64,000 bases of DNA, taken from contig CAWHHZ010000001.1 of the NCBI GenBank assembly GCA_963829355.1, positions 214,964 to 278,963 on the forward strand. The letters are read 5' to 3'. This document shows positions 8,025 to 50,763 of the stretch, in pieces; the stretch's first letter is position 1, and every line of letters begins with the position of its first letter. The position numbers were made by a program, and so were the translations under genes. This stretch comes from an uncultured Acidobacteriota bacterium. Its GTDB lineage: Bacteria > Acidobacteriota > Thermoanaerobaculia > Gp7-AA8 > JAHWKK01. The notes below the pieces were generated by a model. It was not told the DNA's origin and did not search any database. It saw nothing but the letters and a program-made list of their open reading frames with translations.

Positions 8025-9020
8025 AATGAGAGCTGGCTCAAAGCCTCCGCTGCCTTCACCCTCACGTAGAGGTTTTCGTCATCCTGATCGGCCTTGTTCC
8101 GCAGGACCTCCACCGCAGCCGAGTCGAGCTCTCCGCCTGTGGCAACCAGGTTGGCGAGTGCATCAACCGCTTTCATGCGTACGGCGGGGTTCGGATCGTT
8201 TCGAAGTGCTTCGATCAGGGCCTCGCGCGCCACCCCAGCAGACGACGCCGGCATGCTGCGGAGAGCATCCACTGCCTTGATACGGACACCCTCGTGGGAG
8301 TCGTTGCTCAGGACATTGGCGAGAGCCGCGACGAGCTCCGGCTCGGCCGCCGAGGTGGAGTAGGTGTCCTGCACCCACTGGATGACCTCCGAGCGCGAGT
8401 GGGTGGAGTTGCCGCCACTCTGCATTACGTAGGAGATCAGCTCGACCAGGCTCTCGTCGCTCGGTTTGCCCTTGACGGTGACCGAGCTCGTCAGATCGAA
8501 GCGCACCCCGATCTCGCCATCGTCAGTAAACACATTGACGTTGCGGATATCTGGCCTTCCCTGAATGCCAGGGCTGAGCTGCGACGCGGGAAGAATCATT
8601 CGCTCGGAGATCGGCGCAATCTGCTGGATCGAAGCGATCGTTGCTGGCTCCGAGACGTTCGTGGGGACAGTATCCGCTCTCTGCGCGCCCAGGAAGTACG
8701 AGGCTCCGACGAGAGTGATCAACGCCAGCAGCCTGGGCTGCCCACCGCTGCCACGCAGGGCGGCGGAAAGGAATCACCCGGGGGCTTCGCTCCTCCTGCA
8801 TTTGCCGGATCGACTCCTCGAAGCGGGCCGCCGCGCTGGCAGGTACGGGAACATCCGGAATGGCACCGAGCAGATTCCACACCTCACGGGTCGACGACCA
8901 CTCCCGACCGCACTCTTCGCACGACTCGATGTGGTGGAAGGTCTCTTCCCGCTCTTCGCCGCCCAGAGATTCCGTCAGCAGCTCGGGGATCCGTTCCTTC
9001 AGTTCATGACATTGAGACAT
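8021..9020 (-). CDS. anti-sigma factor: N-terminal zinc-finger (ChrR/RsrA-like) + TM helix + HEAT/PBS-lyase repeats, frameshift near 8740
   Basis: MSQCHELKERIPE...HIESCEECGREW zinc-finger motif. After the frame change: LLALITLVGASYFLGA (TM), then VRIKAVDAL, VRMKAVDAL, VRVKAAEAL HEAT repeats. Overlaps the sigma-factor stop by 22 nt. Confidence 0.55.
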
Positions 9021-9577
9021 TTCTCTCCTCCGAAATCCTCGGAAAGCACTTTCTTCAGCGTTTCCATCGCCCGGAAGACGCGGGTTTTGACCGCTCCTTC
9101 CGAACAGCCGGCGATCTGTGCGATCTCGGCATAAGACAGCCCCTGGTAGCGCGACAGGAGTATCGCCTCACGCTGTTCCGGAGTCAGATGCTCGAGTGCC
9201 TGTCGCACCCGTTGCTCATCCTCCCGCTTGGCGAGCTCCTCTTCTGCCGAGAGGCTGTTCTCATCACTGAGACGTGCGAGTACCGCTTCTGGTTCTTTGG
9301 GCTTGTTGTCGGCCTTTCGCAGATGATCCCGGCAATGGTTCGCGGTGATCGAGAAGAGCCACGTGGAGAGCTTTGCGTCCCCCTGGAACTGCCTCGCGTT
9401 CCGGATCATCTTCACGAACACTTCCTGGGTGACGTCTTCGGCGGCCTCGTTGTTGCGCAGAAAGCGCAGGGCAAAGTTGTAGATACGCCGACTGTAGCGC
9501 TCGAAAAGCTCCGCCGCGGGAGTGTAGTCACCCTCCTGAACGCGCCGCATCAACTCCTGGTCGTTCAGGTCACTCAT
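8999..9577 (-). CDS. ECF (sigma-70 family) RNA polymerase sigma factor
   Basis: LMRRVQEGDYTPAAELFERYSRRIYNFALRFL...region 4 HTH LSYAEIAQIAGCSEGAVKTRVFRAMETLK. Start taken at MSDLND; upstream, the ORF runs on in frame into the next gene. Confidence 0.85.
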   Translation of the reverse strand: MSDLNDQELMRRVQEGDYTPAAELFERYSRRIYNFALRFLRNNEAAEDVTQEVFVKMIRNARQFQGDAKLSTWLFSITANHCRDHLRKADNKPKEPEAVLARLSDENSLSAEEELAKREDEQRVRQALEHLTPEQREAILLSRYQGLSYAEIAQIAGCSEGAVKTRVFRAMETLKKVLSEDFGGEKCLNVMN

Positions 9578-9639
9578 ATCCACAGATTCTCTGTTCTTTG
9601 ACGACGCCATCTCGCTATGGTTTCTCACGCGCCACAATT

Positions 9640-10820
9640 TCTGGCCCGAAAGGTTCCCGAACAACGATCGGTCCCTGTCAATTCGCCACGGGCGAGCGGA
9701 GGTCCGTATCCGCGAGCGATTCGACCGGCTGCCGCCCGTCACCACCGCCCCGATCAGCAGCGGCGCAAGGGCAAGTGCGAGGCAGTCGAGCCACGTCATC
9801 AGGACCTCCGCATCGCCGAAGTTGTACTCAGTGAGACCGGCGAGATAGAGGGCGATCGAGGCGGCAATTGCGGCGTCGGCGGCCGTCCGGTCTCGCTCTC
9901 TGCGCTTCCAGAGCTCGAGGACGACGACCACAAACAGGAGGTTGTAGGCAACGAATGTCACCACCCCACGTTCGGCCCAGATCTGAACCGGATTGCTGTG
10001 CAGATGAGGTGTCCGGAACCGGGGCGCATCATCAAGCCGGTAGAACGGATACGTCTCCTTGATGTTGCCAGGACCGATCCCCACGACCGGCCGGTCCCGG
10101 ATCATCTCGGCCCCCGCCTGCGCCATCCTGATGCGGTCCAGGTTGGATGACAGCGTCGGATCAAAGACCGAGACGATTCTTCCGAACAGCGGGAGCGGCG
10201 CGGCCAGGAGCGCAAGCAGAAACAGCGTCACGGCGGCCACAGCGAGCTTCGGCCTGCGGCTCAGCACGATCCAGGAAGCGCCCCCGAGCCAGCCTATCCA
10301 GGCACCTCGGGTGTAGGTGAGAGTCAGAGCCGTGAGGACGATGGCGAGACGGTGCGATGAGATACAGATCTCTTTCGCGGATGAGATACGCAAGCATCAT
10401 CAGGGAGATCACCATGATCATTCCGGAGAAGGTCATGACATGGGAGTTTGGCCCGGTGATGCGGTGGTCCAGATCGGTCCACCCGAGGAGGAAGTACTGA
10501 CCGAGCGCCCAGATGGAGGCAAACGTCGCGATAAACACGAGCAGACGCCAGACGGTGCGCCGCACATCACTCAGCTCCTGATAGACCGAGAGTGAAAGCG
10601 GAAGGATGAGAAACAGGATCGGGTCGCCAATGTCCATCAGAGAGAAGAGCGGAGATGGGGCAAAGAGCGCCGACAGCGCCGACCCCACCAGATAGAGCCC
10701 CATGGGCAGATAGATGGCGGTCCACACCGGCCTCAGAAGAGAGCGCCGCATCGCGACGAACCAGCTGATGATCGCGAGATAGAGAAAGCCTTCCGAGGTG
10801 GCGATCCATGGCTCGCACAA
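9640..10820 (-). CDS. O-antigen ligase / Wzy-like polytopic membrane protein, frameshift near 10300-10390; 3' end uncertain
   Basis: Multi-TM N-terminal piece (10161-10820). The C-terminal piece in another frame has RIRMAQAGAEMIRDRPVVGIGPGN (Wzy_C-like) and runs without a stop into the sigma-factor ORF. Confidence 0.45.
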
Positions 10821-15097: not shown

Positions 15098-16158
15098 GAC
15101 CTCTGATCATAACGGTTCGAATCCGCCAGCCGGTGAAAATCTGCTCGATGACGAGCAATCACTGATCGACATGATCAAGCGCAGATTCGCTCCTCGCTGG
15201 CGAAGGGATGATCGGCATTGGCGATGACGCGGCCGTGCTGCCCGGAGCCGATCCACTCGTCGCGACGACCGATCTCCTGATCGAAGGCGTGGACTTCTTC
15301 CCCGATGCTCCGATGTGGTTCGTCGGCAGAAAGGCTCTCTCTGCGAATCTGTCTGATCTCGCAGCGATGGGAGCCGAACCTGAAGCGTTCCTGCTGACCC
15401 TGGGGATTCCCCCGGGCTCGAGAAAGCAGATGAGCGATCTCGTTGACGGGATGGCGGAGAAGGCAGCGCGAGCGGGGATCGTTCTCGCCGGTGGCGACCT
15501 ATCCGGGGCGGAACGACTTCTGATCTCGATCACGGCGCTCGGGCGTCTCCGCAACCGACGGGCGCTGCTGAGATCCAGTGCGATGGTGGGTCAGTCGGTC
15601 TTCGTCAGCAGGCCGCTCGGGGCCGCAGCCGCTGGTCTGCAGCTTCTCCGCGCCGGCTGGCGGCTCGAGCGGGACGGGAGCGCTACGGGCCCGGCGGCCG
15701 CTTCGTACGAGATCCGCGAGCTCGCGGCGTCGCTCCTCAGAGCACAGCTCGATCCCGAACCGGAGGTGGCGCTCGGCATGAAGCTCGGGTCGATCGAGAA
15801 GATCGGCGCCTGTATCGATCTGTCCGACGGTCTTTCCCGTGATCTTGCGCGTGTGTGCGCCGCCTCGCGCGTGGGAGCGACCATCGACTGGGAGCGGCTT
15901 CCGGTCGTTTCGGATCTGGAACGCCTGAGCATCTTTCTGAAGATCGACGCCGCCGCGTGTGCACTTCACGGCGGCGAGGAGTTTTCTCTGCTGTTCACAG
16001 CGAGAGGCGGAGAAGGGGAGCTCAGTGGTCTGCTGGGACGTCCCGTATACAGGATCGGCCGGATCGAGTCTGAGCCGGGCGTGCGGCTGCTGCGCGGCGG
16101 AAAAGCGACTCCGCTCCCCCCTCTCGGCTTCGACCACTTCGCACGCGCGTCATCCTGA
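15096..16158 (+). CDS. thiL: thiamine-monophosphate kinase, frameshift near 15190
   Basis: N-terminal 30 aa (MTSDHNG...EQSLIDMIKRRFA) in frame 3, then IGIGDDAAVL...DLLIEGVDFF in frame 1. The stop TGA lies inside a repeat TIR. Confidence 0.75.
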
Positions 16159-20475: not shown

Positions 20476-21227
20476 TCAACGGTCCTCTCGATTTTCCGGT
20501 TCGAGCTCCTCGAGCATCTTTCGACCCTCAGCGTCCAGATCGACCGACTCGAGAAGGTCCGGCCTCTTCAGCAGCGTCGCCCTGAGAGACTCCTTCTTCC
20601 GCCACTGCCGTATCCGCTCAGCATGCCCGGATAGCAGCACTTCCGGGACATCCATTCCGCGAACTTCCGCCGGTCTCGTGTAGTGCGGATGATCGAGCAG
20701 TCCGTTGTAAAACGAATCTTCCTCTACCGAATTCCTGTCTCCCACCACATCCTCGACCATTCGGGAAACCGCGTCGATCACGACCATGGCGGGCAATTCC
20801 CCTCCCGACAGCACGTAATCCCCGATCGAAATCTCCTCGTCGACGATCGAGCTCCTCACGCGTTCGTCGACTCCTTCGTACCGGCCACACAGGATGATCA
20901 GCCAGTCGTGGCCCCCGAGCCGAGTCGCCGTGGCATTCTCGAATCGCTCTCCCTGAGGTGACATCAGGATGACCCGCGGGGTCTTCGCAGGTGCCTGCCG
21001 GCGGATCTCCTCGACGCATCGAAAGAATGGCTCGGCGAGCATGACCATGCCTGCTCCCCCTCCGTATGCCTCGTCATCTGTCGACCTGTGCCGGTCGGTC
21101 GTGAAGTCGCGAAGGTCCCAGATGTTGAGCTCGATGATGTTTTGTTTGATCGCCCGCGCAACCACCCCTTCGTTACGGATCGTCTCGAACATCGGCGGGA
21201 AGATGGACACCACGTCGACCCTCAGCT
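20476..21227 (-). CDS. trmD: tRNA (guanine37-N1)-methyltransferase domain, in one continuous frame with upstream rimM (no stop between them)
   Basis: RVDVVSIFPPMFE...EAYGGGAGMVMLAEPFF...RVILMSPQGERF...LIILCGRYEGVDERV...ISIGDYVLSGGELPAMVVIDAV match TrmD. Confidence 0.85.
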
Positions 21228-21891
21228 CCGGCTCGATACGTGGCGGCTCCTCTTCCTTCGGTTCGGGAGGGAGCGGATCGTGGAGAGTTCCCGCACGGCG
21301 GCGGCTCTCCCGCTTGTCGGCGATCGGTGCCTCTTCAATCTCGTCGAGCCCTTCCGGGATGTCCGCCACGATTCGACCAGCCTCGAGATCGACCTCGGTA
21401 CAAATCGCCTTCACGAAGGGCAGATCGAACTCGCGCCCCTCTTCGCTGCGGACGGTCAGGAGCAGCCCGCCGCCACCTTCGGCGACACTGATGACCGTTC
21501 CGAGTGTGTCACCCGCCGGACCGACCACCTCGAGATTCTCCAGCTCGTAGAGGTAGTACTCATCCTCCTCGGTCTCGAGCCGGTCCTCCTCCGGAATCTC
21601 CACGCTCCAACTGCTGTAGCGGCGGATCTCCTCGGGTGCATCGATTCCCTCGAAGGCGAGGAGAACGCGCGGACCGTGGTAGCGGACAGAGCGGATCGGC
21701 GCAGAGAGAATCGTTTTCTCGTCAGGCGAGACGAGAAAGACGGACTGGAGCTTGTCGAATCGCGCGGGATCGTGGGTCCACGGCTCGACGCTCGTCTCTC
21801 CGCGAACGCCATGAGGCTTGCGGATCACGCCGATGGCCACGAGCGAATCGCGCTCGATCGATGCGGTGCAGTCTTTGAGGGAGGAGGACAT
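21228..21891 (-). CDS. rimM: 16S rRNA processing protein RimM domain (N-terminal part of the 501-aa rimM-trmD ORF)
   Basis: LVAIGVIRKPHGVRGETSVEPWTHDP...YYLYELENLEVV...GTVISV; start taken at MSSSLKD (21891). A 35-aa Pro/Glu-rich linker leads straight into TrmD. Confidence 0.75.
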
Positions 21892-21907
21892 CGGCGTCGG
21901 AGCCGAG

Positions 21908-22138
21908 TCAGTCGATGATGTCGAGGAAGTACCTGCGGCGGTTCTTCGTCCCGGCAACTTCGAGAAGGGTGCGGATGGCACGAGCAGTCCGTCCCTGGCG
22001 GCCGATCACCTGACCCAGGTCGTCCTGGGCGACGCGGAGCTCGTACCGCGTCGCCTGACCTTCGTCGATCTCGTCGACGATCACCTGCTCAGGTGTATCG
22101 ACGAGAGATCGTACGACATGCTCGACGAGATCTTTCAT
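21908..22138 (-). CDS. KH-domain RNA-binding protein (UPF0109/YlqC-like)
   Basis: 76 aa, VIGRQGRTARAIRTLL (KH GxxG motif); conserved position between rpsP and rimM. Confidence 0.8.
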   Translation of the reverse strand: MKDLVEHVVRSLVDTPEQVIVDEIDEGQATRYELRVAQDDLGQVIGRQGRTARAIRTLLEVAGTKNRRRYFLDIID

Positions 22139-31846: not shown

Positions 31847-33994
31847 TCAGTCTGCGTTGAACACGACCACGGGGCAAGGCGCGTGGTTGAGGATACGCTC
31901 CACCTTCGGACCGAGGAACAGCCGTTGCGAACCTGGTCGAAGGTCGGTGCCGAGAATGATCAGATCAACCGCTTCCTTCCTCGCCAGATCGAGAATCACC
32001 CGTTCCGCATCCCGGCCCACACGCACCTCTTCATCGATGTTCGCAGAGATCGCCTCCCCCACCACCTTGAGATCGGAAACGATCTGACGGGCTGCTCCGA
32101 GCTGGCGCTGGAACAGGCTGTTATCGGGATCGAACGTGATCTGGCTCTGCTTCTGAACGACGTTCAGAAGAATGACCTTTTCTCCCTCACCGCGGGTCAG
32201 AGCAAAACCTACCTCCGCGGCACGTCGCGAGGGAAGGGTGCCGTTGGTCGGGACCAGCACCCGACTCCCGGTCCATTCTCCATGTTCCGCGCCACTGCGG
32301 ATCACCATCGTCGGGCACGGCGAGACCCGAAGAAGATAGTCCACCATAGGATTGAACAACACCCGCGACGAGCCCGCCTCCTCGGAGGCTCCGAGCAGCA
32401 TCAGATCGTAGCCTTTTTCGGCCTCATCGAGAATGAGCTCCGAAGGAGAGGTCCCTTCCACGACTTTCTTCGAGAGCTCGACGCCGGGAAAGAGCTCACT
32501 GACCCGATCGAGGAAATCGACGCCCTTTCCTCGCTCGCCCGGCTTCGTCACCGTGAGGAGACTCAGCGCGATCGGACTCGCTTCCGACAGTTTCTGAAGG
32601 ATCTTCGACTCGATGCGATACGTCATCGTCGAGGTGTCCCGGAGCCGGATGGGGAGCAGTACGCGGTGAATCGATGCGACGAGACTCTCCTCTTCCTTCT
32701 CCTCCTTCTGGAGGCGCTCGAGCTCCTCGTCCGAAGGAGTCACGTGCCTGAGCACCCATCGCAATGCGGTCGGCGCCAGCAGCGCGTTCGTCATCGCCAT
32801 CAGAACGATGATCGAGAACATGTCACGGGAGAAGACGCCGAGGGAGAGTCCGATGGTTGCGATGATGATGTCCATCGCACCGCGTGTGTTCAACCCGGCG
32901 CTGAACGAAAGTGCGTACCAGTGATCTTTCCGTCCGATGAGCCGGGCGCCGATATAGGTTCCGGTGCCCTTGGCGATGGCCGTGACAACGATGACCGTCG
33001 CTGCAAGACCGAGAAGGCGAGGCTCCATGAGATGCCTGAGGTCGACCTTGAGACCCGCGACCGCGAAGAAGATTGGAGCGAAAACGCCGAGGGCGATGCT
33101 CTCCAGCTTCTCCAGCGCGTCCTCCGGGAGTCTCCGCATCTGCGAGAAAACGATCCCTATGATGAACGCTCCGAGCACCGCCTCGAGATGAAGCGCCATG
33201 CTGATCGCACCCCAGGCAAACATCAGGACGACGATGAACGTCAGGTAACGGTCCGCTCCCGTGACTCGATCACCGACGAAGTCGATCAGCCGTTTCACGA
33301 CCCAGCGGCCGACGGTGAGGCTGAGGATGATGAACGCGATGACGCTGCCAGCGTTCTGCGCGACGGAACCCGCGGTGATCTCGTGACCCGACGCGAGACC
33401 TGCAACGATCGAAAGTATGATCCAGCCGATCGTGTCGTCGCTCATGCCGGCGGCGATGAGAGTCTGGCCGACGTCGCGCCTCATCAGATTCATGTCCATG
33501 ATCACCTTGGCGATCACGGCGATCGCCGAGATGGCCATCGCGGTTCCAAGGAAAAGAGCGAATACCATCCGCTCTTCGGGGTTACCGAGAAGAGAGTCAG
33601 GCAGATTACGACCGAGAAAGAAGCCGCCGGTAAACGTGAGAATGATGCCGCAGAGCGATACCCCGATCGCGGTCTTTGCGTGTCGGCGGATCAGCGCAAG
33701 ATCTGTCTCGAGACCCGTGATCAGCATCATGAACATCGCGCCGATGAGAGAAATCACTTCGAGGAGGTAGCCCTGGGTAGGAGTCTGCGGAACGATGTAG
33801 GCGCCCGCGGCCGGAACCATCGAAGAGAGAATGGACGGTCCGAGGAGGATTCCGGCGAAGATCTCTCCCACGACGGCCGGCTGGCCGAGCCGCTTCGAGA
33901 CCTCGCCGAGCGCTCTCGCGGTGAAGAGCAATACCCCGATCTGGACGACGAGTCTCAGTACGTCTTCATGTGCTGCCGCGGTAAATGGTTCCAT
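31847..33994 (-). CDS. CPA2-family (Kef-type) monovalent cation:proton antiporter fused to two C-terminal universal stress protein (UspA) domains
   Basis: Intact 715 aa; about 12 TM with GLETDL motif; C-terminal tandem USP domains (VLVPTNGTL...; PCPVVVF). Confidence 0.85.
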   Translation of the reverse strand: MEPFTAAAHEDVLRLVVQIGVLLFTARALGEVSKRLGQPAVVGEIFAGILLGPSILSSMVPAAGAYIVPQTPTQGYLLEVISLIGAMFMMLITGLETDLALIRRHAKTAIGVSLCGIILTFTGGFFLGRNLPDSLLGNPEERMVFALFLGTAMAISAIAVIAKVIMDMNLMRRDVGQTLIAAGMSDDTIGWIILSIVAGLASGHEITAGSVAQNAGSVIAFIILSLTVGRWVVKRLIDFVGDRVTGADRYLTFIVVLMFAWGAISMALHLEAVLGAFIIGIVFSQMRRLPEDALEKLESIALGVFAPIFFAVAGLKVDLRHLMEPRLLGLAATVIVVTAIAKGTGTYIGARLIGRKDHWYALSFSAGLNTRGAMDIIIATIGLSLGVFSRDMFSIIVLMAMTNALLAPTALRWVLRHVTPSDEELERLQKEEKEEESLVASIHRVLLPIRLRDTSTMTYRIESKILQKLSEASPIALSLLTVTKPGERGKGVDFLDRVSELFPGVELSKKVVEGTSPSELILDEAEKGYDLMLLGASEEAGSSRVLFNPMVDYLLRVSPCPTMVIRSGAEHGEWTGSRVLVPTNGTLPSRRAAEVGFALTRGEGEKVILLNVVQKQSQITFDPDNSLFQRQLGAARQIVSDLKVVGEAISANIDEEVRVGRDAERVILDLARKEAVDLIILGTDLRPGSQRLFLGPKVERILNHAPCPVVVFNAD

Positions 33995-34060
33995 CTTGTT
34001 GAGCCTTCAGGCCTGGACGACTGCGCTGGACGCGCAACAATACAACATCCACGCCCGGTT

Positions 34061-34495
34061 TCAGCCTGAAGATCGATAGCTGCAGGCGAGCTCGATGTGA
34101 CTGTTGATGTCGCGCGCACTCTTCCGAACTGCGCCGACTTTGCGATCACGTTCGATGATGAACGTCACCCGGCCGGCAAGCTTCAGCAGTGGCCACTTCA
34201 CGCCGTACGTCGAAATGATCTCCGCTCCTGGATCGCCGACGAGAGGGAAAGGCAGGTCGAGCTCCTCCCGGAAGCGGTCGCTGACGTCCTGCCCATCAGC
34301 CGAAACCCCGACCACGTCAACCCCCCGCGCTACGAGATCGTCATACTGCTCGCGAAACTCGCGAGCCTCCTTCGTTCAGCCGGGTGTGAACGCCTTCGGA
34401 AAAAAGAAAACCGCCACAGCCCCGCTCTCCAGCAACTCGTAAAGCGACGAATCGCCAATCGAAAAGTCGGGAGCCGCGTCACCAGTGGAGAGCAT
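34061..34495 (-). CDS. BCP/PrxQ-type peroxiredoxin with in-frame TGA at the peroxidatic Cys position (candidate selenocysteine Prx)
   Basis: MLSTGDAAPDFSIGD...GAVAVFFFPKAFTPG-[TGA 34376-34378]-TKEAREFREQYDDLVARGVDVVGVSADGQD... aligns with E. coli Bcp YFYPKAMTPGCT, with TGA exactly at CysP. Sequence is in frame on both sides of the TGA. Confidence 0.65.
34348..34366 (-). promoter_or_regulatory. candidate bacterial SECIS hairpin 9 nt downstream of the in-frame UGA
   Basis: UGA-acgaaggag-GCUCGCGaguuuCGCGAGC: a 7-8 bp perfect stem with a GU-containing apical loop ~20 nt after the UGA. Confidence 0.5.
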
Positions 34496-34518
34496 GTTGA
34501 AAGGATATCAGGCATCGG

Positions 34519-36720
34519 TCAGCAGTCGTCAGATTGTGGACGTTCGTGGACGTGGTGGACGTCTGTGGACGATGTGGACAGAAGCGTGGACTGAGGCGTG
34601 GACAGAGGCGTGGACGGAAAGCTGCTCAGAAACTCTCTTGAAGTTTCTGGTCCACTCTTTCGTCCACGCTTCTGTCCACGCTTCTGTCCACCCAGTCCAC
34701 CCAGTCCACCATGTCCACAGACGTCCACCCCGTCCACAACCTGTCGACTGTCGACTGACGACCGACGACTGCACCCTTGCAGCTCCCGAATGAACGCCCC
34801 GGTGCTGACGGGGCGGCCTAGAAACTCCTCCACGATTGTCTTTGCCTCGGCTTCTCCTCCGCGTGCGAGGATGACCTCTCGGAAGCGGTGGCCGGTGTCG
34901 CGGTTCATGATGTCGTCACCGAATACCGAGAGCAGATCGTTCGCGATTGTTTCCGACCAGAGATAGCCGTAGTAGCCGGCCGCGTAGCCGCCCGTAATGT
35001 GGCCGAACGCGGCCGGAAACATCGTTCCTTCGACATAGCCGAGCGCCGTCTCATCTTCCATCTGCCTCCAGCGGTCGAGCGACGAGGCTGAGCTCGCTCC
35101 GGCGAGCGCCATGTCGTAGCTCGCGTAGAGGTGTTGCCGCGCGTAATGGATCCCCTTGCCGAACCGGCGCGCACCGTCGAGTCTTTTCGCCAGATCCGCG
35201 TCGATGACCGGACAGGTCGGACAGATCTCCGCCATGATCGAGAGGCTCTCGATCCGTCTCCCCCACTCTTCGAACATCTGCGAAGGAGCTTCGACGAAGT
35301 CGCGCTGCACCGCCGTCCCGGAGTGCATGTTGTAGACGGTCGACGAGAGAACGCCGTGGAGGACATGGCCGAACTCGTGGAGAAACGTCTCGAGCTCCTG
35401 GTGGGTCAGGCCTCGGCGATCGAAGTTCGTGACGAGCGCACTGACTGGTTTTCTCCCGGTCCTTCTGCTGACCCCACGCACAGGCCAGGCGGCGGCGTGT
35501 TTGTACTTGCCGTCTCGAGGGTAGAGGTCCATGTAGATCCCGCCGATGAGCTCATCGCTCGTCCCGTCGATGACGTCGAAGTACAGAACCTCGGGACTCC
35601 ACACAGGAACCTCGATCCGCTCGAACCGGACTCCGTAGAGCCGGCTGCTGAGCTCGAGGACCCAGCAGATCGACGGCTCGACGGGAAAATACTTCCGGAG
35701 CTTTTCCTGATCGACGGAAAACTTCTGCTCACGCACCCGCTCCGACCAGTAAGGCACGTCCCAACGATGAATCCGGACCGACTCCAGCGGCTCGTTCGTC
35801 GCGGCAGCTTTTGCCCGTCGCAGCTCCCCGAGATCGTGCTGCTCCCGCTCCCGCACGGCATCGAGAACATCGTCGAGGAACGCGCGAACACGCTCGGGAT
35901 TCTCGACCATTCGCCGGCGTGTCACATAATGCGCGTACGTCGGCAGAGCGTAGAGGGTGGCCATCTCGCTACGCAGCTCCACGATCGTGTCGAGCAGTCG
36001 TAGATTCTCCTCTCCTCCCCGCTGGAGGTAAGCGGTAAAGAGGCGGCGCCTCGCATCTTCGCTCCGCACGTTCATCATGAACGGGTTGTACTCCGGATAG
36101 TCGAACCCGACGAGAATCTCGTCGCCATCCCTATCGAGGGTGTCGATGATGGCCTGCGGAAGTCCCTCGATTTCGCTCTCGGAAAAGCGGACCTTCACCT
36201 CCTGTTCCCGGATGTTCTTTGCGAACTGCTGACTGAGCTCAGTGATCGACTGGCTGATCTCCCGGAAACGGCGACGCTCATCCTCGTCGAGAGCGACACC
36301 GCTGTCTTCGAACGCTTCGAGCAGATCCTTCTTCAGCGTCAGCTCCGGCGGGCTGGACGGCTCGACAGCAGAGACTCTCTCGAAGAGTGCACGATTCTGA
36401 TAGATCTCGGTGTTGAAACTCGAGAGCTCGACCATGTGCTCGTCCGCGGCTTCCCGAACCTGCCGGACAGGATGGACCTCGTTGAGCAGGGACACCGGCC
36501 CGAAGACGTCCTCGACGAGAATCTCGATGTCATCCCACCGGTCGAGAACATCGCTGACTGATGATTTCTCCAGAGGGATCGACTCGATCTCGTTCAATTT
36601 CGATCGCGCCAGATCGATCACGCGACGACATGAGTGCTCGAGCGTGATGGGATCGTGGATCGGGAGGATTGTGCGCTCGGCGGCGCGAGGTTCAGGCGAC
36701 TTCGGACTCAGATCGTGCAT
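34519..36720 (-). CDS. M3-family zinc metallopeptidase (oligopeptidase A / Dcp-like); the last ~80 codons run through the hexamer array and are probably not genuine
   Basis: HEFGHVLHGVL (HExxH). ATG 36720 with GGGGAG RBS. The C-terminal tail GGLGGLGG...STPLSTPQST is a translation of the repeat array. Confidence 0.75.
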   Translation of the reverse strand: MHDLSPKSPEPRAAERTILPIHDPITLEHSCRRVIDLARSKLNEIESIPLEKSSVSDVLDRWDDIEILVEDVFGPVSLLNEVHPVRQVREAADEHMVELSSFNTEIYQNRALFERVSAVEPSSPPELTLKKDLLEAFEDSGVALDEDERRRFREISQSITELSQQFAKNIREQEVKVRFSESEIEGLPQAIIDTLDRDGDEILVGFDYPEYNPFMMNVRSEDARRRLFTAYLQRGGEENLRLLDTIVELRSEMATLYALPTYAHYVTRRRMVENPERVRAFLDDVLDAVREREQHDLGELRRAKAAATNEPLESVRIHRWDVPYWSERVREQKFSVDQEKLRKYFPVEPSICWVLELSSRLYGVRFERIEVPVWSPEVLYFDVIDGTSDELIGGIYMDLYPRDGKYKHAAAWPVRGVSRRTGRKPVSALVTNFDRRGLTHQELETFLHEFGHVLHGVLSSTVYNMHSGTAVQRDFVEAPSQMFEEWGRRIESLSIMAEICPTCPVIDADLAKRLDGARRFGKGIHYARQHLYASYDMALAGASSASSLDRWRQMEDETALGYVEGTMFPAAFGHITGGYAAGYYGYLWSETIANDLLSVFGDDIMNRDTGHRFREVILARGGEAEAKTIVEEFLGRPVSTGAFIRELQGCSRRSSVDSRQVVDGVDVCGHGGLGGLGGQKRGQKRGRKSGPETSREFLSSFPSTPLSTPQSTLLSTSSTDVHHVHERPQSDDC
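34536..34740. repeat. symmetric inverted array of GTGGAC x8 (left) and GTCCAC x9 (right) around a palindromic centre CAGAAACT-ctcttg-AAGTTTCTG
   Basis: GTGGAC starts at 34536, 46, 55, 65, 74, 86, 98, 34610; GTCCAC starts at 34650, 62, 74, 86, 95, 34704, 13, 23, 32. Spacings are 9-10 bp at the outer ends and 12 bp near the centre on both arms. Units such as aTGTCCACAg resemble the high-GC DnaA box TTGTCCACA. Confidence 0.8.
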
Positions 36721-36997
36721 TGGCTCCCCTGTTGCTGCGAAGCAATGATATCTGCAATCGGACGTCCGGCTCACCCGGTCTGGAATCGGCGGAAAGCCGG
36801 GCGCCCCCGACAGCTGTCACAGTCGGGACGAGAGTCATTTCACTCCACTGACGAAGCGAGGCGGCGTTCATTCCCCCGCTCAGGACGACAGTCGCCCGGC
36901 AACGGATCCCTCCGCTACAATTCAACCACAGCAGCGGGGATAATCTCCTTGCCGCACCGAAACACCACAATGCTTGCACGATCTGGAAGGACGACGA

Positions 36998-46839: not shown

Positions 46840-48658
46840 TCAACGAATATACCTCACACCGACAATTGTCCGGCGGGAGGGTGCAGGGTATCCGAGAACT
46901 TCTTCATACTCCTCGTCGAGCAGGTTCTCGAATCTTCAGATACGGGGTGAGACCAGAGCGATGACCCATCCTGAGATCCATGTCCACAACGGTGTACGCA
47001 TCATTCGTCACGCGCCCGAAGGGGAAGGCGGACTGGAAATCGGCCCGATCACCGGAGTAAAGAGCGCTGATAAGCCCGGCGAACACTCCCCGCTCCCAGC
47101 CGATCGACAACGCTCCGCTCTGTTCCGGACGGCGCAACAACTCGAGGCCCGTGGCGCGGTCCTCGGTGTCGAGGATCGTCCAGGAACCGTCGATGCGCAC
47201 CATGCCAGCTCTCACGGATCCGCCGAGCTCGAGTCCGCTCGTCACGGCACTGCCGACATTCGCGAGCCGGTTCGAAACCGGATCGAATACGATCAGATCG
47301 TCGATGTCGTTGTGAAACCAGGTGAGGGAGACGCGGCTGGAATCACCCGTCCAGTCGAGCCCGGCTTCCCAGCTCTGCGACGTTTCGGCTCCGAGCTCCG
47401 CATTACCGTAGAACGGATAGTAGAGATCACCGACGGAGGGGGCGCGAAAGGCTTCTCCGTAGGCGACGCGTCCTCGAATGCGGCCCAGGGAGAGCCCGCC
47501 ACTGATTCTCGGGTGAGGTCTCCGCGCCGAACTCTTCGTAGTTGTCGTAGCGCAGTCCTGCCGCAACCTCGAGAGCCGCCGTCCCTAAGGTGGCGGAGAA
47601 CCGGTCCTCGATGAAAACGGCTTTCGACTGACGCTCGTCGCCATCCAGATTCGTTCCGAAGAGAGTTTCATCCGTCACCGAAGAGTCTCGAGCTCTCCTC
47701 CCGCCACGATGGTGCCGGCAGCCGTATCGAATCTTCCCGTCACCGACAACCGCTCGCTCTGCGAATCGGTTTCGCTGGCGATCGGCCCGAATGTACCGAA
47801 CGGATCACTGAAGTCGATCTGGTGCCCGGTCCGCGAGAGCGTCGCGTCCCACACCCCGAAACCGCTGACGATGGTGACCGGGACAGCGATCTGGAGCTCG
47901 CCTCCGTCCTGTCGACGCTCGAGCGAAGGCTGGCCCTGATCGAAGGGAATCCCCAGTTCGTAGTCGTTGAATCTTCCTGACGCGCCGAGAGAGATGTTGT
48001 CGCGGGGGCTCCATCGCAGCGAGCTGACCACAGAGAACTGGCGGAAGTCATCATTATCGAAGAAGCCGTCGTCCTCACGCGCTTCCACGGCGAGATCAGC
48101 GCTCAATCCGGTCCATACGCCCGTCGCCTCCAGCCGGCCGTTGAGAAGTCCACGCTCGCCGACCTGAAGGTCGGATGCGATGCCCGGCCTTCTCGCGCCA
48201 GTGAGGACATTAATGACACCCCCCACTGCGTCGGCCCCATACAGGGAAGAGAACGGTCCTCGCACCACCTCGACCTTCTCGACCCCCACGCTCGAGAACT
48301 GGCCCCAGTCATAGCCTGAAAAATACGGGTTGTTGATTTCGATTCCGTTCCAGAGGACCAGGGTCTGCGCCGAGTTGACGCCACGGGTGAAAAGCGAAGT
48401 CTGCCGTCCCGATGAGCCGGATCTGCTCAGCGACAACCCCGGGACTCCTCGAAGGACCTCCTCCAGGTTGAGAGCGTTCTGCCGTTCGATCTCTTCTCTG
48501 GTGATGATGGTGACGGAAGCCGGCGTGTCCTCCGCGTTCTCGACGATGGCGGAGGCGGTGACGACGACCTCTTCCTCGAAGACCTCACCGGCTGATTGCT
48601 GGCCGAGAATGGGGAGGGTACAGAGGGTGAGTGACAGGGTGAGACGACACAGCCGCAT
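46840..48658 (-). CDS. TonB-dependent outer-membrane receptor (BtuB-like), fragmented by at least 3 frameshifts
   Basis: Signal peptide MRLCRLTLSLTLCTLPILGQQ. TonB box and plug (DTPASVTIITREEIE...FTRGVNSAQTLVLWNGIEINN). C-terminal ...NLLDEEYEEVLGYPA...VRYIR* recovered by frame change. Preceded by a cobalamin riboswitch. Confidence 0.7.
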
Positions 48659-48751
48659 GAGAGCTCCTTTCGCTTCCCACCGAAGCGCGTTGTGGGACCG
48701 GGAAGCTCGCGTCTGCGCGGAACCGCTCCCATGACCCGAAGGAATGTGAAC

Positions 48752-48922
48752 CGTGTGAGGCAGCCGGTCTCCTGACTCCCGAATCATCCTCCTCGAAGCA
48801 CCCTTCCCGGATAACTTCTCCAGTGGGGATCGCCGCTCGCGCGGTTGATCAGCTTCGATTCGTCATCGGTCACAGTGGCGGGGGCCGTGTCGGACTTGCA
48901 CCGACTTCCCGTGCACCACCTC
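48752..48922 (-). promoter_or_regulatory. cobalamin (AdoCbl) riboswitch
   Basis: Minus-strand RNA GGUGCACGGGAAGUCGGUGCAAGUCCGACACGGCCCCCGCCACUGUGA...CCCACUGG...GGGAAGGG...GAGUCAGGAGACCGGCUGCC carries the conserved core and B12 box; ~95 nt upstream of the TBDR ATG. Confidence 0.8.
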
Positions 48923-48994
48923 ACGAAGGTGTAAAAGAACAGATCGGCGATTGTAGCAGAGAGGGAAGGCTGAGGTAACGCCTCCGGCGTTTCT

Positions 48995-50247: not shown

Positions 50248-50340
50248 GGAGGAGTGGCAGAGCGGTTGAATGCAGCGGTCTTGAAAACCGCCGTGCCGGT
50301 GACCCCGGCACCGTGGGTTCGAATCCCACCTCCTCCGCCA
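50248..50340 (+). tRNA. tRNA-Ser (anticodon TGA), CCA encoded
   Basis: Acceptor GGAGGAG/CTCCTCC, anticodon loop CTTGAAA, long variable arm, T-loop GGTTCGAAT. Confidence 0.85.
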
Positions 50341-50670: not shown

Positions 50671-50763
50671 GGAGAGATGGGAGAGCGGCTTAATCCAGCG
50701 GTTTGCTAAACCGCCGTACTGATAACCTCAGTACCGAGGGTTCGAATCCCTCTCTCTCCGCCA
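50671..50763 (+). tRNA. tRNA-Ser (anticodon GCT), CCA encoded
   Basis: Acceptor GGAGAGA/TCTCTCC, anticodon loop TTGCTAA, long variable arm, T-loop GGTTCGAAT. Confidence 0.85.

Follow-up and report, generated by a model that had tools for sequence, protein, structure and literature searches.

Here, we report that a gene on the minus strand (34495..34061) of a 64,000-nucleotide stretch of DNA from an uncultured Acidobacteriota bacterium (contig CAWHHZ010000001.1 of assembly GCA_963829355.1, positions 214,964 to 278,963; hereafter the window) very probably encodes a functional selenocysteine (Sec)-containing peroxiredoxin of the PrxQ/BCP class, cytoplasmic and 144 residues long. An in-frame TGA falls in this gene at the position of the peroxidatic Cys and is followed by a hairpin with the characters of a bacterial selenocysteine insertion sequence (bSECIS). 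A first-pass annotation of the window had proposed a Sec-containing peroxiredoxin with a bacterial SECIS, and the proposal is strengthened by our analyses, in which the hairpin proved to be specific to the Sec forms of the gene, to covary and to respect published constraints, and in which selection was detected on both sides of the UGA.

The frame comprises 144 sense codons and a stop, with a sole internal TGA at codon 40 (34378-34376), and its product is laid out as MLSTGDAAPDFSIGDSSLYELLESGAVAVFFFPKAFTPG-[TGA]-TKEAREFREQYDD...ELACSYRSSG-[TGA], the active-site stretch around codon 40 reading FFFPKAFTPG-TGA-TKEAREF. When a Cys was placed at codon 40, profile searches matched the product to the Pfam domains AhpC-TSA (E = 5.9e-29) and Redoxin (E = 4.7e-18), and the closest solved structures in the PDB were the PrxQ/BCP peroxiredoxins 5epf_A and 3drn_A (E about 1e-18 to 2e-18). 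Full-length homologues carry a Cys at the position of codon 40, encoded by TGC or TGT within the same FFFP[KRM]AFTPGC motif, and U40 aligns with Cys in all Cys forms, which bears out the earlier claim of a 145-codon minus-strand frame with its TGA at the peroxidatic Cys. Across the subfamily, Pro33, Thr37, U/C40, and Arg109 are invariant in 85 of 85 sequences (74 Sec forms and 11 Cys forms). The marks of the PrxQ/BCP class, namely an AhpC-TSA thioredoxin-fold domain, the PxxxTxxC/U motif and the conserved Arg, are all present, as is the mark of a selenoprotein, an in-frame UGA at the position of a conserved redox-active Cys. The features of the gene are as follows.

34061..34495, minus strand: predicted selenoprotein coding sequence, 144 residues, Sec at residue 40, TGA stop at 34063-34061 (AhpC-TSA and PDB PrxQ/BCP matches; ATG start shared by the orthologues)
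34376..34378, minus strand: UGA predicted to be read as Sec (U40), at the peroxidatic position of PxxxTxxU (TGA kept in the orthologous contigs L001-L004 and in wider homologues)
34385..34399, minus strand: codons Pro33 to Thr37 of PxxxTxxU (P33 at 34399-34397, T37 at 34387-34385; invariant in 74 Sec and 11 Cys forms)
34169..34171, minus strand: codon of Arg109, the conserved peroxiredoxin active-site Arg, in a GRVTF motif (85/85 subfamily sequences)
34082..34099, minus strand: codons His133 (34099-34097) to Cys138 (34084-34082), Cys138 being a candidate resolving residue on the strength of conservation counts

The subfamily to which the protein belongs is short and cytoplasmic, with 39 residues ahead of Sec, no signal peptide and an invariant His133 (85/85 members). 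The first-pass annotation had described the resolving Cys as absent, which holds for the position of the E. coli Bcp-type resolving Cys, five residues past the active site, where residue 45 is an Arg (mostly Gly in the subfamily), but not for the protein as a whole, since Cys138, its sole Cys, lies near His133 and is largely conserved (60 of the 74 Sec forms, or 81%, and 6 of the 11 Cys forms). With Arg at residue 45 in place of the resolving Cys, the protein appears to resemble 1-Cys BCPs or BCPs with an alternative resolving Cys, and Cys138 is a possible candidate for such an alternative resolving residue in a BCP that has no Cys five residues past its active site.

Nine nucleotides past UGA-40, the mRNA is predicted to fold into an 8-bp hairpin (-14.0 kcal/mol), whose loop begins 16-17 nt past the UGA and consists of GUU, or of AGUUU with the A-U pair opened.

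34348..34366, minus strand: bSECIS hairpin, with 5' arm GCUCGCGA (34366-34359), loop GUU (34358-34356) and 3' arm UCGCGAGC (34355-34348), assigned from its fold, its covariation and published constraints

A hairpin at this distance with GU in its loop had been claimed in the first-pass annotation, and it was found at 34366-34348. In the published bSECIS model, a stem of 4-16 bp carries an apical loop 3-9 nt long with a G among its first two nucleotides, the UGA-to-loop distance is 16-37 nt, and the minimum free energy is -7.5 kcal/mol or lower (PMC13188914); the window hairpin lies within all of these bounds. By published criteria, the hairpin is thus a predicted SECIS, as its constraints are respected, its occurrence is specific to Sec forms and its arms covary. 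The SECIS region matched no Rfam family, and no such hairpin accompanies the second UGA of the frame (34063-34061), which is the stop of the gene.

Several observations count against a functional selenoprotein and have to be weighed. Considered alone, the hairpin stands out only moderately, with z = -1.16 for the 66-nt fold, and among the 2,064 TGA trinucleotides of the window, 3.9% come with an unbroken stem in SECIS geometry of 8 or more base pairs, 0.8% with a 28-nt segment that reaches -14 kcal/mol or lower, and 0.3% with both. Its distance from the UGA (16-17 nt to the loop), correctly described by the first-pass annotation as that of a bacterial SECIS, is at the minimum that the bSECIS model allows. 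Moreover, the hairpin lies within conserved codons (AREFRE), so that its identity among four close orthologues is partly a matter of protein constraint. As the first-pass annotation had also noted, the Sec machinery is missing from the window: no tRNA-Sec was found by a tRNA scan of the 64 kb, and neither SelA, SelB nor SelD was found among the 30 window open reading frames (ORFs) of at least 250 aa. Finally, signs of indel errors occur elsewhere in the assembly, in a frameshifted ThiL-like gene and in two fused ORFs (RimM with TrmD, and Wzy_C with an extracytoplasmic function [ECF] sigma factor), which gives some support to the earlier remark that this sequence is prone to indels.

Because the hairpin is unexceptional on its own, its significance rests on comparative data. 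To this end, we folded the segment +7..+34 relative to the UGA or Cys codon in the subfamily defined by FFFPKAFTPG-[U/C]-[TSA]x[EQ][AT]xxF. The 73 distinct Sec sequences have a mean of -12.9 kcal/mol, and in 75% of them six or more of the 7 register pairs are kept; for the 13 Cys sequences the figure is -5.2 kcal/mol, and the hairpin is retained in only one of them. This single case, a TGC Cys form on a metagenome contig (L217), has an intact CCGGCGG-GUU-CCGCCGG hairpin (-14.1 kcal/mol); it has the look of a gene that went recently from Sec to Cys and kept a "fossil" SECIS. The hairpin is not formed in Cys forms whose peptide is nearly identical (TREADEFRRE, TREAREFSRE), so that protein constraint cannot by itself account for the structure.

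Within the Sec set, double-sided changes affect three of the eight pairs (15-29 CG/UA/AU, 16-28 GC/CG, and 20-24 GC/AU). The clade of the window has the arms GCUCGCG/CGCGAGC (peptide AREFRE) and the main clade CCGGCG/CGCCGG (peptide AGEFRR), the differences between the two being compensatory changes that alter amino acids encoded by both arms. The covariation score of 0.146 was attained by 0 of 500 shuffles, which gave 0.060 ± 0.008, and slid registers score lower. The picture is that of a Sec-specific hairpin upheld by compensatory change. Other Sec-peroxiredoxin subfamilies have hairpins of unrelated sequence, with the loop mostly 16-23 nt past the UGA; periplasmic forms from Myxococcota, for instance, have GCGCUG-CGUGA-CAGCGC, and the forms of Anaeromyxobacter and Archangium have GCGUACCG-GGAC-CGGUAUGC.

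A first rival explanation is that UGA-40 is a genuine stop, which would make the locus a decaying pseudogene, or the source of only a 39-aa peptide and/or an 84-aa restart fragment. Besides the Sec machinery not seen in the window, this explanation has on its side the output of gene callers, which give a short fragment only.

34061..34315, minus strand: 84-aa fragment called by gene callers (P0001), from a GTG restart past the UGA; annotation artefact

This fragment is devoid of the active site, and the catalytic residues that the UGA divides between the two parts are nonetheless all invariant. The nearest relatives (P0063, P0072-P0077, and P0084) are shortened in the same manner. In a search of 5.8 billion proteins, all matches above about 60% identity were fragments of 83-105 residues, most of them starting past the UGA position, and full-length matches, which carried Cys, were only 50-59% identical. 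That close matches should consist of fragments only is what gene callers would be expected to leave behind when they halt at a conserved TGA. The public record apparently holds the 84-residue fragment only, when the true product would be a 144-residue selenoenzyme, and the nearest relatives are likewise affected. The closest named relatives are Vicinamibacteria and Acidobacteriota metagenome-assembled genomes (MAGs), at about 52-56% identity.

DNA was retrieved for three of the fragments (L001/L002, L003, and L004) from independent Logan and ENA assemblies. The four contigs, which represent three distinct sequences, all have a complete ORF whose TGA falls at the corresponding codon and is followed by the same hairpin, and they share with the window the gene order Peptidase_M3, Prx, Na/H-exchanger+Usp; the reconstructed sequences are 81%, 73%, and 69% identical to that of the window. 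Conservation of the hairpin in relatives, which the first-pass annotation had singled out as a check, is therefore observed in the four orthologous contigs, the Cys forms being mostly without it. In Nei-Gojobori comparisons of the window with its orthologues, the ratio of nonsynonymous to synonymous substitution rates (dN/dS) is 0.08-0.18 over the 39 codons ahead of the UGA and 0.10-0.33 over the 98 codons past it, with dS of 0.55-2.2, near saturation. When changes were polarized with outgroups, the window's own lineage was found to have accumulated 13 synonymous and 6 nonsynonymous changes, the latter conservative, and the ORF has neither frameshifts nor extra stops. The gene is thus under purifying selection on both sides of a UGA that its orthologues keep. 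The low dN/dS on both sides, the balance of changes in the window lineage and the invariance of the divided catalytic residues all go against a genuine stop, which we regard as extremely improbable.

The same data bear on a second rival, according to which the TGA is a sequencing or assembly error for TGT or TGC in an ordinary Cys-peroxiredoxin, a substitution that the first-pass annotation had left open. This rival can draw on the probable indel and fusion artefacts found elsewhere in the window. In the ThiL-like gene (15130-16158, plus strand), the N-terminal "EQSLIDMIKRRF" segment is out of frame with the GIGDDAAVL core, with a frameshift near 15130-15210 and probably a 1-nt indel as its source. 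A single minus-strand ORF (20476-21981) contains RimM and TrmD domains together, and another (8999-10393, minus strand) joins a Wzy_C O-antigen-ligase C-terminus to a complete ECF sigma factor; both ORFs are likely to be neighbouring genes joined by lost stops or frameshifts. However, these suspected errors are indels rather than substitutions, the same TGA stands in four orthologous contigs of independent assemblies and in more than 190 other homologues, and it comes with a Sec-specific hairpin. Purifying selection on both sides, together with the TGA and the hairpin in the orthologues, therefore excludes a pseudogene or a sequencing error, and the chance that the codon is in truth TGT or TGC is practically negligible.

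A third rival accepts the gene as part of a true selenoprotein family and supposes that its genome recently lost Sec decoding, so that the gene would be non-functional or inefficiently read through. The lack of Sec machinery in the window speaks for such a loss, as does the fact that losses of selenoproteins and of the Sec trait are frequent in bacteria (PMC1794560). On the other side, the substitutions of the window lineage still bear the stamp of selection, the perfect hairpin is the same as in the nearest orthologue, and the ORF is intact despite an error-prone assembly. It is on this evidence of selection that we place high confidence in a functional selenoprotein and consider a recent loss of the decoding trait very unlikely.

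The searches for Sec machinery also turned up candidates that were rejected. The window contains two tRNA-Ser genes on the plus strand (50248-50340 and 50671-50763), with anticodons UGA and GCU; the one with the UGA anticodon was discarded as a tRNA-Sec, since it reads UCA codons and the anticodon of tRNA-Sec is itself UCA. ARAGORN found only 6 tRNAs in all on the retrieved homologue loci, among them no tRNA-Sec, a result that carries little information. An AIRS/AIRS_C ORF (15208-16158, plus strand) was dismissed as a SelD on account of its ThiL-like motifs, of the missing Sec/Cys N-terminal motif and of the frameshift upstream of it; the motifs in question, GIGDDAAVL...TTDLLIEGVDF, are presumably ThiL-like. 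Lastly, a scan of the window for further coding frames bridged by a TGA yielded 44 candidates, all of them off-frame artefacts or true gene ends, and a redox motif occurs in the peroxiredoxin gene only.

A fourth rival is that UGA-40 is decoded in another way, by near-cognate read-through as Trp or Cys or through a reassigned UGA, the hairpin merely slowing the ribosome. Nothing specific speaks in its favour. UGA serves as a normal stop in the same gene (34063-34061) and in its neighbours, and the position is that of a redox-active Cys, at which only Sec or Cys keeps catalysis; the probability that we assign to this rival is slighter still than that of a lost decoding trait.

Under the selenoprotein reading that we retain, the hairpin located 9 nt past UGA-40 would act as a bacterial SECIS during translation: SelB, carrying GTP and Sec-tRNA(Sec), would bind it and deliver Sec to the UGA in the A-site, in competition with release factor 2, and the second UGA (34063-34061), which has no hairpin, would end the protein. 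The selenolate of U40, activated by Pro33, Thr37, and Arg109, would then attack a hydroperoxide and become a selenenic acid, which may be reduced through a U40-Cys138 selenenylsulfide or directly by a thioredoxin- or glutaredoxin-type reductant, in a 1-Cys-type mechanism that would here make a 1-Sec enzyme. SelB binding and Sec insertion are proposed on the model of the established bacterial Sec pathway and peroxidase catalysis on that of peroxiredoxin chemistry; selenium incorporation and the role given to Cys138 are likewise things that we only infer.

With regard to the breadth of this Sec form, a scan of one genome per GTDB species with the pattern TTYCCNAARGCNTTYACNCCNGGNTGA, which stands for FPKAFTPG followed by TGA, found the arrangement in at least 119 species-representative genome contigs, the groups among the matches listed including Myxococcota (with Anaeromyxobacter and Archangium), Acidobacteriota/Vicinamibacteria, Actinomycetes, Marinimicrobia, Spirochaetes, and others. 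A complete peroxiredoxin ORF runs across the TGA in 117 of the 124 matches listed, L001-L004 and the window being counted in. In metagenomes, we looked for FFFPKAFTPG followed by TGA, TGC or TGT, in a sample that was taken in scan order and is not an unbiased census; 81 of the 120 matches listed have TGA and 39 have TGC or TGT, which shows that for this motif Sec forms are no rarer than Cys forms. Altogether, the arrangement of a TGA with its hairpin recurs in more than 190 further homologues. Ecologically, and with the same caution as to sampling, metagenomes of soil and rhizosphere abound in the Sec form, as do MAGs of Acidobacteriota-like, Myxococcota, and Actinomycetes affiliation. The implication for the organism of the window is that of an uncultured bacterium which would possess the Sec-decoding trait and need selenium for part of its peroxide defence.

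Upstream of the peroxiredoxin start, between it and the M3-peptidase gene, lies a near-perfect palindrome of about 270 nt (34496-34790, with arms at about 34508-34630 and 34650-34772), which is the most unusual thing nearby, more so than the peroxiredoxin gene itself. It is made up of about 8 GTGGAC and 9 GTCCAC hexamers spaced 9-12 nt apart, with CGACTGACGAC-type repeats at its flanks, and its RNA folds at -177.5 kcal/mol (z = -13). The arrangement GTCCAC-N3-6-GTCCAC occurs 16 times in the window, when 0.08 occurrences are expected, and 15 of the 16 are in the palindrome. A related palindrome exists in L001, whose contig ends inside it, and in L003, where a scaffold gap falls inside it, and it is absent in L004. 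Against Rfam, the palindrome gave only spurious sub-threshold matches to long-hairpin miRNAs. A terminator, an operator array or an insertion of the MITE/REP type (miniature inverted-repeat transposable element or repetitive extragenic palindrome) are all possible identities for it. The Peptidase_M3 ORF (34519-36774, minus strand) is 751 aa long, against 650 aa in the L003 orthologue: the homologous stop is missing and about 84 codons run into the palindrome, an overrun that may be genuine or may stem from the assembly.

The peroxiredoxin start itself is preceded by a candidate promoter element.

34502..34507, minus strand: TATCCT hexamer 6 nt ahead of the ATG, with no Shine-Dalgarno; possible -10 box of a leaderless transcript

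In the window and in L001 (about 101-106), L003 (about 9814-9819), and L004 (about 1677-1682), the hexamer TATCCT or TATGCT stands 6-7 nt ahead of the peroxiredoxin ATG, which, with the absent Shine-Dalgarno, suggests a -10 box and a leaderless mRNA. A promoter and terminator scan of 33900-34850 for consensus promoters found nothing. Abutting this possible leaderless promoter, the palindrome could be a regulatory or mobile element of unknown kind. One might go further and see in the clade of the window a soil-bacterial "1-Sec" PrxQ subfamily in which the Sec form is the commoner one, His133 and Cys138 form an undescribed resolving or activating pair for the selenenic acid, and expression is governed by the upstream palindrome; we consider this combination unlikely. 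Elsewhere in the window, an ORF with a TonB-dependent-receptor Plug domain (47675-48787, minus strand), presumably a B12 uptake gene, is immediately preceded by a cobalamin riboswitch (48745-48935, minus strand, 92.9 bits).

From the perspective of known selenoproteins, the gene is a member of the "Prx" family with the TxxU motif (COG1225/PF00578), whose status as a selenoprotein family is long established in the literature (PMC1088965, PMC2398784, PMC1794560). Described by Zhang, Gladyshev et al., with examples in Anaeromyxobacter dehalogenans (three copies; PMC1794560), Geobacter metallireducens, and Syntrophobacter fumaroxidans, this family counts 253 members in the GOS data (PMC2398784) and is listed among the known families, with its conserved PxxxTxxU, in a 2026 review (PMC13188914). 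The window gene has in common with it the PxxxTxxU motif with a peroxidatic Sec, the AhpC-TSA domain, a SECIS immediately downstream and many Cys homologues, and in our genome scan the Anaeromyxobacter/Myxococcota members had the same FPKAFTPGU motif. It differs from these relatives as part of a distinct short cytoplasmic subfamily, whose SECIS (GCUCGCGA/UCGCGAGC) is unlike those of the Myxococcota subfamilies.

Among NCBIfam models, the best match of the window protein is NF006960, the thioredoxin-dependent thiol peroxidase Bcp/PrxQ of E. coli, which is of the same fold class; the score of 70.3 bits is far below the equivalog cut-off of 140, and that against the Deinococcus-type PrxQ model NF053650 (63.5 bits) is below its cut-off of 260. 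The protein is thus a family-level relative of Bcp/PrxQ and not an equivalog. The active site of E. coli Bcp is of the FYPKAMTPGC type, with a Cys instead of Sec, and its resolving Cys comes five residues past the active site, where the window protein has Arg45. PrxU of Eubacterium acidaminophilum (Sohling et al. 2001; NF040737) is the experimentally characterised Sec-peroxiredoxin cited for the Prx family; the window protein reaches only 32.1 bits against a cut-off of 270 for that model, which places it in another Prx family and rules it out as an orthologue of PrxU. The Prx-like thiol:disulfide oxidoreductase selenoproteins ("Prx-like 1-3") are, as the window protein, bacterial and of thioredoxin fold with a PF00578-related domain, but they have a UxxC motif where the window protein has TxxU and no Cys within three residues of its Sec.

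As for the recoding element, the SECIS of E. coli fdhF/fdnG and the window hairpin both lie within the coding sequence directly 3' of the Sec-UGA and have a small loop with a G followed by a U. They have no sequence similarity, and the bulged U that the fdhF SECIS carries is missing from the window hairpin, whose 8-bp stem is short and perfect. No new principle emerges, Sec-containing peroxiredoxins having ranked since 2005 with the most abundant selenoprotein families known in bacteria: the gene, which is mis-annotated, adds a new member to a selenoprotein family established long ago, and would come as no surprise to a specialist.

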